Source: Eledone cirrhosa
Lineage: Eukaryota
Direction of reading: 5' to 3'
Assembly: GCA_964016885.1 (NCBI GenBank)
Contig: OZ024742.1
Location: 48,608,001-48,672,000 of the forward strand
Length of the DNA: 64,000 nt
The translations under genes were made by a program, and so were the position numbers. This document shows, in pieces, positions 1 through 61,631 of the stretch; position 1 is the stretch's first letter; each line of letters starts with the position of its first letter. The notes beneath the pieces were generated by a model that saw nothing but the letters and a program-made list of their open reading frames with translations, searched no databases and was not told the DNA's origin.

Positions 1-215
1 TGAGGTAAGGTTGATAAATATTCGTATAGAGGTCTAAGGTAACATCAATGCAATTAGGTACTTTTGAAGTGTTTTCAAAGGTGATGTTATGGTTGTAATA
101 GTCCTTGAGGAATTTTCTAATTTGTTTTTTTGTTTTTCTCTATATTAGAATTGCTAAGATTGTTAGATAACAATAGACAATCATCCCGATAAAGACCACC
201 TTTGAGGTGGGGAAA
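1..215 (-). mobile_element. Inverted copy of the RT region of the Naiad-type PLE at 217-5236 (runs off the left edge)
   Basis: Reverse complement matches about 2169-2382 (PHLKGGLYRDD...DVTLDL). The junction with the pLTR shows GAAA microhomology. Confidence 0.9.
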
Positions 216-270
216 TGTATTTTAAGACGTATCATACGCTGTATTATACTATGTACAATTTACCACACCG

Positions 271-341
271 TACGGGGCCGATAAAATAAAGTTCCAATAA
301 TGTACTGGGTAATTGCTGGCCTTGTGCTTAAAGTAGAAACA
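271..341 (+). mobile_element. 3' fragment of Nin/Deu-domain SINE inserted in the 5' pLTR only
   Basis: cggggccgataaaataaagt...ccttgtgcttaaagtagaaaca. Absent from the 3' pLTR copy near 4488. Confidence 0.8.
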
Positions 342-1162
342 ATTATATTATATTATTGTAATACTCTATTTCATTATCTTATTATAATTTTCATCTTGTA
401 ATATACTTTCTTTCCTAGTCATGACCTTAATTTATATTCACCTAAATTCTCCATACAACACAACTCAACATTTGATTTTTACATTCCTTTTAAACTTCAC
501 TCTACCATATACATTCAAATATCAATTTGACAATCCCCTTTTTCCTAATACATTCTTTATAGCAATTCTATTGTTAACACCATTTAACCATTCCTTTCAA
601 AGGGTCATGACCTCAACTAAAGTGAATTATTTTTCATCTTAATATCATATAGAAAAAAACAATCTCTTTGGTTTTTTCTTCAGCTACCTTCAAATAATGT
701 CATAGAACTCAATTTACTACTAATTTACTACTAATTTTGAAAAAAATTCTCATTGCTTTTGACAACAGCTGGTGATATGCATGTAAGTACATATTCTCCC
801 TATGTAACTAACCTTACATAGATCGAAAACGAAGTATAGTTACGATGTATTATCATCACCTACAAACGATCGTAAAGCAGTGAAGTATATTTCTAGTGAC
901 TTGATTTTTTATTTCATTGTTTTAACTTATATCATGACTCTGTTTTCCTTTTAATGTTTTGTTTTCCGGGATTTATTTTAACCTACAACATTTTCAACAT
1001 ATTGATTACATTGAGTTCTTCATGCAGACTGGACTCCACAACTTACCGTGGATATCTCTGTGTATTTTGCTCCTTCAATATATTTTTTCATAATTTTTTC
1101 CACTTCTGTGATTATAATATTTAGTTGAGCTCTTTTTTTTTTTATCTAATTCCTGCATCACA

Positions 1163-3800
1163 ATGGAAAAACAATATTTGGGTACCTCGTTGAAGAATAT
1201 TCCAATTCCACCTAAAGATGAATATCTACTCTTGCTCATACAAAAGACTAACCAATTTATTAGGAGAATGTGATGAAGGGCCTATCATTTTGACAACAAA
1301 ACCAATACAGATGAAATGAAGTACCGCTATGGATTCAAAACATACGCAAATCCCCCTCATAATATTCAACTTGAAAATTTTGAGAGCGCCCTACTGAACA
1401 TGATTAAAAACATAAAGTTCAGAAAACAGAAATCTGAATTCCAAAAGGGATTAGACTCTACTCTTCGACCACTGAACAATTCAAACAAGGTCGATGTTCA
1501 TTCTGACGAAACTGGTACTTTGTACCATATGGATATCGATAAATATAACCAGGTCATATATAAAGAACCTAGAAAAAACTATAAGAAAGCAAGCACCACC
1601 GCACTGACATCCTTGAACAACATATCATGTGATATAGTAAAATAAACTCCATATTGAAGATAGAACTGAGCCTTTCACAACCTAAGAGCCCGCACTTCAA
1701 CCTGAAGGACTATAAATCTTACTTTAATTCGAACCCATCTATTAGACTGATATGCCCATCAAAATCTGATATTGATAATATCAACAAGAGAATTATTGAT
1801 CGTATCATTCCACACATTAGTAAATGTGTAACACTTCCATTATGGGATAAAACTTCCCAAGTTACTGAATGGTTCACTAGCATAGAGAATAAAAACTCAG
1901 CTTCATTCATTGAATTCGACATTGATTCTTACTATTCTTCGATTTCTTCAATTCTTTTAAACAAAGCACTGATCTTCGCCAGAAATAGATCGGATTTATG
2001 TACTGAGGAAATCAACATCATAACTCACGTTAGAAAAACCTTATTAAACTTCCAAGAAGAGCACAGGACAAGAAACACATATAACAACTTATTACGATGG
2101 GATCCATGGACTCTGCTCAAGTTACAGACCTCGTTGGACTATTTCTTCTCTATAATAGTTATTTCCTCTTTTCCCCACCTAAAAGGTGGTCTATATCGGG
2201 ATGATTTCCCATTGTTATCTAACAATCTTAGCAATTCTAATATAGAGAAAAACAAAAAAACAAATTAGAAAATTGGTCAAGGACTATTACAACCTTAACA
2301 TCACCTTTGAAAACACTTCAAAAGTAGCTAAATTCCTTGACGTTACCTTAGACCTCTCTAAGAATATTTATCAACCTTACCTCAAACCCAACCAGAATCT
2401 ACACTGTGTATATTCACGCTCTAACCACCCTGGCTCTATACTCAAAAACTTAGTATATAACATATCTCTTAGACTTTCTAAATTATCTTCCAATGAAGAT
2501 ATATTTTATAATAATGCACCCTGCTACAACGAGGCCTTAACTAGAAGTGAATATAAAGAAAAGAATTCATATATCCCCAACACTACTATGGACCAAATAT
2601 AAAACCTAGCAAAAACTACAAACACCAAAAAAAACCCCCATCGAAACAAATACCTAATGGGGTTATTCCTATTACAGCAAACAACCGAAAAATCACAACA
2701 ACTATTACTACACGATCTATGACTAATGTTATCAACTCACATATGAATATCAAGCATTCAACCTCTCATAATCTACCCAATAATAACACCAAATACAACC
2801 ACAGTAGTTTACCAAATTCCACAAATACAGATACTAACCATAGGAACTCTTCTATAACACAGCACATTAATATAAGTGGTAATAAAAACTTAACTAAAAA
2901 CCGCAAAAGAAACATAACATGGTACAACGCACCCTTCAACTTGCAAACTATTGGACAAATCCCAAAGAAATTCTTCGAAATTCTACATTAACATTTTCCA
3001 CCAAACCACAGATACCACCAAATATTTAACAGGTATACTGTTAAATTCTCATACTCTACATCAAACAAACTCCAGCAAAAAATAAACAACTAAAACATTT
3101 ATAAATTTAAGAATAATATGACCACACCACCACAACATAATTTAAATAGGACTGCACCTTTTAAAAGAACAAATAATATAATCCTTCAACCTGGAAAACA
3201 CAACCACCCAAATCACCAACACAAAAACAACATAACACAAAATCACAATCAACCGTATCACTAACCCACCTACAAAGCAACCTCCATTCTGGCGCTAACA
3301 TTAATTACAATAGAAATAGCTCAAGAATTAATGAGAACGGTATAGTTACCCCCGACAACCATCTTACGTATGGTTGCAATTGCAGAAATAGAAGCATTTG
3401 CCCCTTAAATGGCAACTGTTTGATTAATAATGTAATAAATAAATGCACTGTGTCTACTACTGACTCCAACAAAACATATATAGCATATACATCGAACACA
3501 TTTAAGAAAAGATATTACGCACACTCTAGTAGTTTTAACAATACTAAACTAGCTAACACCACATCTTTAGCTGAAGCAGTATATAACTATAAACAGAAAA
3601 AAATAGATTTCAAGCTATCGTGGAACACCATTCTGCAAAGAACTCCATATCTTGGGAACAGGAGAGAATGAAGGTTATGTTCAGAGGAGATCTTGGAAGT
3701 TACTAAATCTAAGTAGGATTTACTGAATAAAAGATAGGAACTGATTATAGTTTGTAATCACCGTATACGAAACACATTTAAATACTATAAACTTAATTAA
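1163..3800 (+). pseudogene. Disrupted PLE RT + GIY-YIG endonuclease ORF
   Basis: Motifs TSLKNIPIP, SDETG (DKT), FDIDSYYSSI, GGLYRDD, FLDVTLDL, TWYNAPF, CNCRNRSICPLNGNCL, YIAYTSNTFKKRYYAH, LLNKR..CNH. Many stops and frameshifts. Confidence 0.92.
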
Positions 3801-60015: not shown

Positions 60016-60370
60016 TAGAAAGTGAGGTTTTTTTTACAAAATGAAAAATAACCGAGGTGTCCTACACGAGTGGAAGTATCAAGAAAAAGGGATGAAATCG
60101 AAAATGCAACTGAAGTCTTATTTTTTTTAAAATATATATATTTATTTGGTTCCTTTACCGGTTTCGCAGTTCTTCTGCTTTTCAAAAGGTGAGTTGAGAT
60201 GGAGGGTCGGTGGTTTTTCTCACAGATGTGAGAAAAACCACAGACCCTCCATCTCAACTCACCTTTTGAAAAGCAGAAGAACTGCGAAACCGGTAAAGGA
60301 ACCAAATAAATATATATATTTTAAAAAAAATAAGACTTCAGTTGCATTTTCGATTTCATCCCTTTTTCTT
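60016..60370 (-). mobile_element. Miniature fold-back element in (TA)n with a U3-A8 hammerhead in each arm
   Basis: Arms 60081-60224 and 60227-60370, 65-nt tail 60016-60080. Confidence 0.85.
60262..60299 (+). ncRNA. 38-nt minimal type I hammerhead with U3-A8 core
   Basis: cctt-TTGAAAA-gcag aagaa ctgc-GAAA-ccgg-TA-aagg. Further copies in the mirror arm and in both arms of 60452-60903. Confidence 0.8.
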
Positions 60371-60451
60371 TATATATATATATATATATATATATATATA
60401 TATATATATATATATATATATATATATATATATATATATATATATATATAT

Positions 60452-60903
60452 AAAGGCGTGTGACTGAGTGGTTATATGTATATATATATATATAAAGAAA
60501 AAGAGATGAAATCGAAAATGCAACTGGAGTCTTATTTTTAAAAAAAATATATATATTTATTTGGTTCCTTTACCGGTTTCGCAGTTCTTCTGCTTTTCAA
60601 AAGTAGAGTTGAGATGGAGGGTTTGTGGTTTTTCTCACATTTGGTTGGTCTCTGAATGTTACTTGTTTTAAAACAAGTAACATTCAGAGACCAACCAGAT
60701 GTGAGAAAAACCACAAACCCTCCATCTCAACTCTACTTTTGAAAAGCAGAAGAACTGCGAAACCGGTAAAGGAACCAAATAAATATATATATTTTTTTTA
60801 AAAATAAGACACTAGTTGCATTTTCGATTTCATCTCTTTTTCTTTATATATATATATATATATATATATATATATACATATAACCACTTAGTCACACGCC
60901 TTT
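60452..60903. repeat. Loop-less palindrome of the same family, also duplicating flanking (TA)n and a 22-bp unique tag
   Basis: Centre ttttaaaa at 60669/60670. aaggcgtgtgact(g/a)agtggtta at both outer ends. Confidence 0.92.
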
Positions 60904-60988
60904 ATATATATATATATATATATATATATATATATATATATATATATATATATATATATATATATATATATATATATATATATATATA

Positions 60989-61631
60989 TTTAAGTCGTTT
61001 GGAAGCCTCGACAATGCAAATGGGTAAATCTCCGGGTAACAAGGTCCGGTGGTGGAGAGAGAGATGTAAGTGTGTGTACGCTGAGATGCGTGGTGTGTAT
61101 AAGATGTGTGAGATGTGTAGAATGAATGGAAGAGTATAAAGGATAAAATAAAAATAACAACACAAGAGAGAGTTACCTTGGGAGAGATTTAATAGTCCCT
61201 ATATATTTCGGATTCACATCCATCAACTGGGGGTTTTTCCGGGGTGGGGGAAAAGGTTGTCTGTCGGACAAGTCCCGAACGCGTCCTTCGCTGTTTGTTG
61301 TCCGACAAACAACCTTTTCCCCCACCCCGGAAAAAAACCCCACTTGATGGATGTGAATCCGAAATATATAGGAACTATTAAATCTCTCCCAAGGTAACTC
61401 TCTCTTGTGTTGTTATTTTTATTTTATCCTTTATACTCTTCCCTTCATTCTACACATCTCACACATCTTATACATACCACGCATCTCAACGTACACCCAC
61501 TTACATCTCCCTCTCCACCACCAGACCTTGTTACCCGGAGATTTACCCATTTGCATTGTCGAGGCTTCCAAACGACTTAAAGATATTTACTTATTGTTCA
61601 ACAATGCTTCAAGCAAACTTCAATACTCTCA
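60989..61631 (+). mobile_element. Fold-back element in (TA)n (arms 60989-61271 and 61298-61581, 50-nt tail) with a hammerhead-like motif
   Basis: ccc-ca(g/c)ttgat-ggat gtga atcc-GAAA-tata-TA-gg. Same architecture as the neighbouring PLE ends. Confidence 0.75.

Follow-up and report, generated by a model that had tools for sequence, protein, structure and literature searches.

Paired head-to-head ends of Penelope-like elements in Eledone cirrhosa suggest two cDNAs started at two fixed RNA sites

Inserts of Penelope-like elements (PLEs) in Eledone cirrhosa consist of two head-to-head copies, nearly always one ending at each of two fixed, family-specific sites, and their miniature versions (minis) are likely to be two run-off cDNAs of one integration, joined together. 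The window (the whole stretch of 64,000 nucleotides that was analysed) contains ten such inserts, mostly 3′ ends of Hydra-type PLEs. An earlier note, made from the letters alone, had given eight of them firmly and two as probable; masked self-BLAST and mapping to natural family copies recovered head-to-head arms, with their 3′ ends pointing outward, at all eight and at both of the two. The one-sided tail which it had described is borne by all ten. Its (TA)n on both sides holds for nearly all, the insert at 36619-37212 lacking it on the right. In the following list long arms carry the tail and short arms do not; signed positions count from the base where turns between arms pile up (+1).

1 to 215, minus strand: inner end of the short (tail-less) left arm of a family H insert, placed by masked self-BLAST and mapping to natural family copies; the arm starts 2,475 bases before the window (locus L410)
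214 to 5238, plus strand: family H long arm, made up of a partial upstream copy and a decayed Hydra-type ORF (1277-3779); turns pile up near 4914, the U3-A8 hammerhead core is at 4921-4927 with its predicted cut after 5046, and the short and long termini are at 5104 and 5236-5238
7794 to 7963, unstranded: family A-related mini, (TA)n on both sides, without hammerhead core; 7794-7850 form the short arm (+58 to +2) and 7851-7963 the long one (+25 to +138)
10788 to 10979, unstranded: family E mini, long left and short right arm, turning a few bases inside +1; a hammerhead core in each arm, stem I incomplete
14620 to 14937, unstranded: family G mini; the left arm is short and bears a hammerhead (14719-14672, minus strand), and the right arm is long and has internal deletions
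36619 to 37212, unstranded: older F-related insert without (TA)n on its right; the left arm, split by a different repeat at 36776-36906, is long and the right arm short
37695 to 39207, unstranded: family F insert; tailed arm 37695-37954 (+343 to +84), 260 bp; tail-less arm 37955-39207, about 1,250 bp of the same family F body with an internal microsatellite
41313 to 46868, minus strand: family B long arm with hammerheads at 41510-41466 and 45632-45588; a 4,122-bp unit joins seamlessly to 1,434 bp of an upstream copy
46872 to 50556, plus strand: family B short arm, with its turn pile-up at 50336 and a hammerhead at 50458-50502
55431 to 56860, minus strand: family A short arm, terminus at +58
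56861 to 59960, plus strand: family A long arm, 5′-truncated; RT and GIY-YIG frame 56847-58685, 80-nt tail 59881-59960
59775 to 59868, plus strand: family A type I hammerhead with its U3-A8 core at 59780-59786, predicted to cut after 59863
59794 to 59825, plus strand: family A TATA-like box (59794) and initiator-like site, the putative transcription start; turn pile-up (+1) at A59823, inside hammerhead loop II
60016 to 60370, unstranded: family C mini with a full U3-A8 hammerhead in each arm, the left one long (+213 to +4) and the right one short (-1 to +148)
60495 to 60844, unstranded: family C short+short hairpin, breaking the long+short rule; 26 bp of flank are copied inverted (60453-60478 and 60877-60902)
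60990 to 61630, unstranded: insert of family D (non-Hydra), with a hammerhead-like fold whose core is non-canonical; the left arm is the short one (+327 to +12), the right the long one (+42 to +368)

Two further pieces in the window stand alone: an isolated tail fragment at 40086-40142 and, at 12008-14500, an element with one arm. At 37695-39207 the sizes reported earlier, about 260 bp for the tailed arm and about 1250 bp for the tail-less one, agree with mapping to the family F body.

Families A, B, E, F and H encode Hydra-type proteins that are 33-51% identical to one another. The families had been called unrelated, which suits D, clearly of another clade, but not these five. Their features fit the Hydra clade: an RWK-type motif (RWR in A and E, RWK in B; the F and H frames are partial), DKT, a CxCX5C linker, no CCHH within GIY-YIG, and a (TA)n target. 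The family A frame of 612 amino acids has Atlas matches to RVT_1/GIY-YIG clusters, and full copies have ORFs of 717-723 amino acids: a single ORF holding RT, with a GIY-YIG endonuclease at the C terminus, as in EN+ PLEs. Pfam gave no match for the Hydra-type proteins of A, B or E. The D protein matches RVT_1 (1.5e-09) and, weakly, GIY-YIG; it has neither DKT nor CxCX5C, and a CxxC persists within the nuclease, which sets it outside the Hydra clade. As for family C, no PLE ORF was linked to its arms in the eight loci examined, and it may be non-autonomous. The pseudo-LTR (pLTR) shows a partial tandem, an inverted copy and a one-sided tail, as expected of EN+ PLEs.

The earlier note had reasoned that short-arm termini scattered at random would speak against priming at defined sites. 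They proved fixed in all six families scored, at 30 loci each: short and long termini lie at +58-61 and +138 (A), +152 and +213 (C), +60-75 and +137 (E), +223 and +319 (B), +175 and +343 (F), and +324-332 and +368 (D). Two fixed termini are also present in G and H (5104 and 5236 in H). Tails measure 80 nt in A and, approximately, 97-99 in B, 61-65 in C, 40-50 in D, 65-77 in E, 168 in F and 132 in H. Among 3,705 minis of one family A subfamily (spacer 72-102 nt), 3,551 (96%) pair one short with one long end, 22 being short+short and 132 long+long; independent choice of ends would give 1,851, 872 and 982. Some 10-15% of arms have no partner. Lengths of (TA)n did not differ between short and long ends (medians 34 and 29, p 0.17), and at six of the eight start sites with read-through copies the sequence beyond the start site opens with TA. 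The two fixed termini, this pairing and arm pairs that do not overlap support the dual priming at two defined RNA sites that had been proposed.

The inner ends of the arms pile up as well. Of 30 loci in each family, arms starting between -9 and +16 number 24 in A, 20 in E, 18 in B and 16 in C, against 0, 1, 1 and 2 in the next 26 nt upstream; both the placing of +1 and this interval followed sight of the pile-up. Families F and D pile up weakly (just 4 of 30 arms in the interval); G and H, looked at later, pile up too. Genome-wide, 3,825 family B arms reach the pile-up base, 1,307 pass -8 and 1,235 pass -15, the last being a control, so that 66% are lost over 8 nt and 6% over the next 7. For A, 17,544 arms hold +1 to +25 and 4,364 reach -7, and for E 1,517 arms (non-T at -1) fall to 618 at -6; with the upstream control confined to B, part of these two drops may be subfamily variation. 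The arms that do pass the edge are the minority, and it is these that hold seamless tandem arrays; one array of 4.5 units with alternating variants fits two templates or later duplication and is left out of the argument.

Promoter signs stand at the same place. A TATA box lies at -29 (A), -30 (C) and -29 (E), with pyrimidine-A at -1/+1; no canonical TATA at -30 was found in B, D, F, G or H. Among unexplained bases at -1, G exceeds a share of one third (17 of 29 arms, p 0.0045; G-selected loci L061-L079 and one double-counted locus excluded). The excess is modest: family E has no extra G, and the partner arm accounts for many of the G and C at -1. Copying of a cap is expected to leave an extra G at a cDNA end, as in other retroelements. 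Single arms adjoining the (TA)n target end at +1 to +3 at L026, L029, L110, L132, L170, L172 and L173. A sharp edge with promoter signs would fit cDNAs that stop at one base, which is likely to be the transcription start of the element RNA.

Motif and stems identify a type I hammerhead in the pLTR, of the U3-A8 form in A, C and H and C3-G8 in B, E, F and G. Rfam returned no hammerhead, just sub-threshold microRNA-like matches on hairpins, and only family B folds better than its shuffles. The U3-A8 variant of type I has been described (PMC4209133). That arms include the hammerhead, as had been stated, is true of some: of the ribozyme, 7794-7963 retains the 3′ half alone, 10788-10979 is missing the 5′ strand of stem I, and the D core is non-canonical. 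The ribozyme cut was considered as the turn point and ruled out. Each pile-up is upstream of the predicted cut, by 41 nt in A, 45 in E, 72 in C and 167 in B.

A mechanism can be proposed. A dimeric RT-GIY-YIG complex would bind the RNA 3′ of the hammerhead, and its subunits would take different start sites, one the distal and one the proximal, often with the help of 2-4 nt of TA pairing. Both target strands would be primed, and most cDNAs would run off the 5′ end of the capped transcript, the edge being the capped Pol II start in the pLTR; host end-joining would then connect the two cDNA ends. Long arms and tandem arrays would need a template continuing above +1, be it a read-through multimer, a circle made by the hammerhead, or scarless strand transfer. 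The minis are likely stalled copying products that mark where the copying cycle fails; of the two origins suggested for them earlier, abortive products are the favoured one.

In retroviruses, minus-strand strong-stop DNA is a short cDNA that runs off the RNA 5′ end, and in L1 twin priming two primers from one cut target produce an inversion. Here, by contrast, both arms begin at fixed internal sites and usually overlap, and the PLE route does without the tRNA primer, integrase or RNase H of the retroviral one. It is a rather doubtful, if conceivable, extension that PLEs, the sister group of telomerase, replicate by an independently invented LTR-like strong-stop route, all its steps taken jointly. 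The dimer would begin two cDNAs close to the transcript's capped 5′ end and both would run off; each would have to transfer to the hammerhead-cut 3′ end of the RNA via the short repeat between start site and cut. Success would rebuild the pseudo-LTR, repeatably, yielding tandem arrays, while failure would leave mini hairpins, which would be the majority product in four families. In 60 stretches from the first 100 of 4,364 places, no mosaic between subfamilies across +1 was found in 55 of 57 scorable arms, two being ambiguous (10 of 67 were unparsed); scarless intramolecular transfer would leave no trace. Nor did full-length arrays end in excess at +1 on the second round in seven stretches chosen for intact ORFs. 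A blunt template jump from +1 onto the hammerhead-cut end was tried and rejected: of 23 genome hits, one lay at the cut, and several duplicate junction bases and so look like DNA-level duplications.

Could the fold-backs be chimeras of assembly or library? Inverted repeats and (TA)n are difficult to assemble, but we give this a negligible chance. Genome counts of the family motifs range from 268 to 36,156 (the latter being exact matches of one family A motif) and those of their reversed-pattern controls are 0, so the inserts are not chance; paired arms diverge (83-99% identity by masked self-BLAST), termini are asymmetric and fixed, and junctions have extra bases. The earlier note had held that an artefact would leave raw reads that do not span the fold-backs; raw short reads from three libraries contain opposite-strand joints and both (TA)n-joined termini. 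Of the 15 joints listed, 14 switch strand and 10 have one side at 59819-59829, a RAD cut at 59830 hiding those in which both arms reach +1. With the divergence of the arms, these switches argue against artefact. That minis are non-autonomous hairpin ribozyme elements moving as units, the other origin suggested for them, is very unlikely, even though they are numerous (3,551 in one A subfamily), some junctions recur, and family C, with no ORF found, may be non-autonomous. Thirty minis have 27 distinct junction types and lack the shared internal junction of a MITE, A minis lack the hammerhead core and TATA box, termini are common to minis and coding copies, and published animal retrozymes are, in the sections consulted, tandem arrays (bioRxiv 10.64898/2026.07.22.740005). 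Variable turns had been expected of dual priming and identical ones of unit mobilization; turns in fact cluster at one base, yet junctions differ, which suggests run-off at a fixed RNA end.

Varied junctions and arms that do not overlap argue against simple snap-back too. In that account, proposed in PMC3846280, the second arm is copied from the first, either when one cDNA folds back on itself or when an antisense template primes its own copying. Palindromic junctions are common, 23 of 26 close pairs (tallied by eye) share subfamily variants across arms, and flank DNA is copied inverted at some loci (60453-60902 in the window; L192). The tail-less arm, however, often holds sequence that the tailed arm lacks, as at 37695-39207, and overlap is little or none there and at L100, L143, L177, L187, L210, L219 and L220; nor does fold-back predict a fixed second terminus with 96% pairing. 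As a general route it is largely refuted and, on balance, quite improbable, though rare short+short cases may arise so. Somewhat less improbable, yet still unlikely, is that dual priming holds while the pile-up reflects an RT pause at RNA structure, or a palindrome favoured for joining, rather than an RNA 5′ end. Many junctions use short palindromes near +1, those of E, B and C being at +1 itself, and hammerhead stem I adjoins +1 in E and H. Against this stand the one-sided edge of B, partnerless arms that end at the same base, TATA at -29/-30 in three families, and the family A +1, which is within loop II and not at a stem foot.

Neither the two-armed architecture nor the use of two internal RT start sites is new to the literature (PMC8557442, PMC11167929), and we compare them as described in the sections of these papers that we drew on. 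Hydra-clade EN+ PLEs form complex insertion units, tandem or inverted (Craig et al. 2021, PMC8557442), and share with our families the inverted 5′-truncated copy, partial tandems, a tail that is often one-sided, (TA)n targets, hammerheads and the Hydra protein motifs of A, B, E, F and H. Tails there are 30-40 nt, explained by EN-mediated resolution, against 40-170 here, and those sections neither count pairs nor describe turns piling up at the transcription start. In target-primed reverse transcription (TPRT) in vitro by the lizard element PAc (Poseidon of Anolis), cleavage and extension take place on both target strands (Frangieh et al. 2024, PMC11167929); the tail is bounded by two internal RT start sites, a dimer is predicted, the template is uncleaved RNA, and truncating the RNA 5′ end shortens the product (PMC11167929). 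PAc displays no strand difference in start site, in contrast with our 96% long+short genomic pairs; its start sites are described as non-homologous to the target, whereas TA comes next in six of eight here; and its model invokes multimeric mRNA, run-off minis going unmentioned in the sections consulted (PMC11167929). Penelope of Drosophila virilis (PMC2377424) and of Adineta vaga (PMC3846280) likewise have a promoter and start site in the pLTR, with Inr or TATA+Inr motifs, a tail and inverted flanks; the Adineta inverted junctions were ascribed to antisense-template self-priming (PMC3846280), against which our non-overlapping arms argue. Minimal PLE hammerheads (PMC4209133) and non-LTR retrozymes (bioRxiv 10.64898/2026.07.22.740005) are likewise type I, with a palindromic loop 3 and the U3-A8 variant. 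The same two sources propose a circular template for tandems and report opposite-strand motif pairs 100-700 bp apart in Schistosoma. Retrozymes are head-to-tail with complete hammerheads, while our minis are head-to-head and, in A, B, C and E, turn 41-167 nt upstream of the predicted cut.

The origin of PLE inverted ends, one-sided tails and pseudo-LTRs is stated as open (PMC2377424, PMC8557442), no obvious mechanism for pLTR regeneration being known (PMC2377424), and the published sections consulted hold no account of strict long+short pairing, of a pile-up at one family-specific base, or of varied junctions and non-overlapping arms. Any mechanism must meet the 96% of pairs with one long and one short start. 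The genome is, in effect, a collection of tens of thousands of frozen intermediates, and its pile-ups are single-base predictions of RNA 5′ ends. If the reading is true, turn pile-ups would map PLE promoters using DNA alone, and many short hairpins resembling MITEs or microRNA precursors would be failed PLE insertions.

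At G000:C3:48608001-48672000 of the 3.0-Gb Eledone cirrhosa assembly, self-BLAST after simple-repeat masking returned inverted arms at every window site where an earlier note had described two head-to-head copies of a Penelope-like element (PLE) 3' end. At sites with an ORF, the 3' ends face outward, toward the (TA)n flanks. Two inserts listed there as probable hold as well: 1-5236, whose short left arm begins 2,475 bases before the window, and 14620-14937, which pairs a short (tail-less) with a long (tailed) end and has internal deletions. Exact-motif counts for the families are given below; reversed-motif controls gave 0 genome matches, against 268-36,156 for the family motifs.

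Window inserts by family, with exact-motif matches in the genome
55431 and 7794: family A (36,156)
41313: family B (5,779)
60016 and 60495: family C (13,737)
60990: family D (3,445)
10788: family E (3,042)
37695 and 36619: family F (1,669)
14620: family G (1,119)
1-5236: family H (268)

The window carries other repeats. A single-armed Hydra-type 3' fragment (12008-14500; hammerhead at 12196-12158, minus strand) lies between two (TA)n runs and is broken by another repeat. Two further hairpins of abundant repeats, at 35759-35960 and 36186-36399, have relatives in 64 and 27 of the loci examined; the former looks like a further tailed family, while the latter is unclassified. A dispersed repeat of about 190 bp, probably a SINE-like element, occurs at 12837-13019, 21853-22051, 25173-25585, 34797-34997 and 36776-36906, once as a tandem dimer. 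Decayed frames at 24090-26149, 27101-28030, 31589-34774 and 61854-63711 belong, judging by their motifs, to other retroelements: LINE-type reverse transcriptase (RT) and endonuclease frames, plus one more RT-like frame at 27101-28030.

The families had been described as unrelated, a view that fails for A, B, E, F and H: these are related, because their proteins are 33-51% identical in pairwise comparison. All five display the Hydra-clade motifs of PMC8557442 (section 11), namely RWR or RWK, DKT and CxCX5C, with a nuclease devoid of the internal cysteine pair. A family G copy matches the neighbouring Hydra-type frame at 68%, and family D belongs to a PLE clade other than Hydra. No PLE ORF was found in family C at the loci examined; its long copies (L334, L126) contain internal repeats of about 327 bp or fold-backs, again lacking a PLE ORF, and with 13,737 motif matches it may be a non-autonomous PLE. 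The families carry type I hammerhead motifs, three of them with the U3-A8 core, a variant already described in PMC4209133. An Rfam search did not detect these hammerheads, and only that of family B folds better than shuffled sequences. The family D core is atypical: a hammerhead-shaped fold is retained (61338-61372 with 61232-61262) with core positions 4 and 6 changed. Most of 30 copies preserve this fold, which lies about 210 nt away from the family's termini.

Along contig C1, the first 30 loci of each family have 3' ends of two classes, in a ratio of about 1:1. In H and the six mapped families the predicted hammerhead cut lies 5' of both termini, and the arms were therefore copied from uncut RNA, the template used in vitro according to PMC11167929. 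Pairing of the two classes is strict. Genome-wide patterns for the minis (short hairpin inserts) of one A subfamily, with a 72-102-nt spacer and 'long' meaning sequence that extends beyond the short end, gave 3,551 pairs of the short+long type, with 22 short+short and another 132 long+long, where independent choice would give 1,851, 872 and 982. Could the second arm be a copy of the first? The tail-less arm can carry sequence missing from the tailed one, and at seven loci the arms overlap barely or not at all, a result that a copied second arm could not produce and that makes two separately primed cDNAs the simplest reading. The proposal of two cDNAs started at two defined RNA sites is thus supported. 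Read-through copies exist for eight start sites, and at six of these the next RNA bases are TA, which could pair with the (TA)n primer. Around a family C short+short hairpin, 26 bp of flanking DNA recurs in inverted orientation (60453-60902); at L192 a larger stretch of non-family DNA, likewise copied in inverted orientation, adjoins a +1 arm.

At their inner side, arms begin preferentially at one base in each family, which we call +1 (A59823 in family A). Arms starting between -9 and +16 number, per 30, 24 in A, 20 in E, 18 in B, 16 in C and 4 each in F and D, against 0, 1, 1, 2, 3 and 0 in the next 26 nt upstream, both +1 and the range having been chosen post hoc from the data. Families G and H, studied afterwards, show a pile-up too. 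Genome counts are one-sided: 3,825 family B arms hold +1 to +22, 1,307 reach -8 and 1,235 reach -15, while A drops from 17,544 to 4,364 at -7 and E from 1,517 to 618 at -6, the control covering B only and subfamily variation possibly adding to the drops in A and E. The hammerhead cut is rejected as the turn point, the edge being located elsewhere. Some junctions are unusual. One mini arm (L424-L433, G000:C1632) has at least 13 tandem 54-bp copies of +1 to +54, either made by repeated copying where the RNA ends or grown afterwards as a satellite; another (L420) has three 47-bp copies. About 110 bp of non-family DNA separates two family B arms, both ending at +1/+2 (L176:1220-1335), and L047 and L097/L098 bear 15-17-nt poly(A)/poly(T) adjoining the TTT just above +1, possibly through slippage at the template end.

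What stops the copying at +1? A TATA box stands 29 (A), 30 (C) and 29 nt (E) upstream of the edge; no canonical one occupies the matching position in B, D, F, G or H. The edge is pyrimidine-A, and single arms fused directly to target stop there as well. Copying of a cap would yield G just before +1. Among 29 arms in which template and partner leave that base unexplained, 17 have G, and a by-eye tally of the first 50 of 99 two-base-gap loci with two +1 arms found G on both arms five times and C on both never; the signal is modest, and E lacks it. Since PLE promoters and start sites are moreover located in the pseudo-LTR (PMC2377424, PMC3846280), we infer from these features together that +1 would be the RNA 5' end. 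Dual priming followed by run-off at that end is, in our judgement, the probable course of events.

The minis had been proposed to be either abortive products or elements mobilised as units; run-off favours the former, and 27 distinct junctions among 30 family A minis argue against the latter. The fold-backs are not assembly artefacts, as raw short RAD reads from three libraries under one species label contain strand-switch joints: among the matches listed, 14 of 15 joints switch strand, ten with one side at 59819-59829, though each joint rests on few distinct read starts and the RAD cut at 59830 conceals joints with both arms reaching +1. Loose (TA)n ends appear at both termini in these reads. 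Across +1, run X1 shows an increase in contig depth of about 22-fold, a figure that is not a copy number.

Arms that pass the edge run on into seamless tandem arrays with a unit of about 3,543 bp and at most 4.5 units; the units are 99.6-100% alike, and the upstream truncation points vary (seven stretches, selected for intact ORFs). A further step is required here, because a linear transcript from +1 cannot template them. The template might be read-through multimers (PMC11167929) or hammerhead-made circles (PMC4209133, Discussion), or arise by scarless transfer via the +1-to-cut stretch. This last, LTR-like reading we regard as rather unlikely. Two tests for transfer were negative: one blunt junction lay at the cut among 23 genome matches, and 57 scorable arms gave no clear subfamily mosaic across +1. 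Both results are compatible with intramolecular transfer. In a 4.5-unit family A array (L330+L331, G000:C1:91,473,000-91,489,200) the units alternate at four sites (A-A-B-A-B where covered), through alternate copying of two templates or through duplication of two units at a later time; in a 3.5-unit array (L332+L333, G000:C2:320,548,000-320,562,000) the 3'-most unit differs from the rest at about ten sites, all from position 1,729 on, which suggests a mid-unit template switch or conversion.

The observation is real, and its architecture and families are already known. The inverted copy, one-sided tail and (TA)n targeting are published (PMC8557442, PMC2377424, PMC3846280). PMC11167929 already reports extension of both strands together with two internal start sites, and PMC4209133 describes hammerhead pairs on opposite strands 100-700 bp apart. 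In literature searches and in the text consulted from these papers and from PMC13282606, PMC12910113 and PMC8969392, we came across no account of a strict pairing of long with short ends, nor any description of minis as start-site run-off products, ideas that supplements or reviews of PLE structure may hold. These two quantitative rules, long+short pairing and the turn-point edge, sharpen the mechanism.
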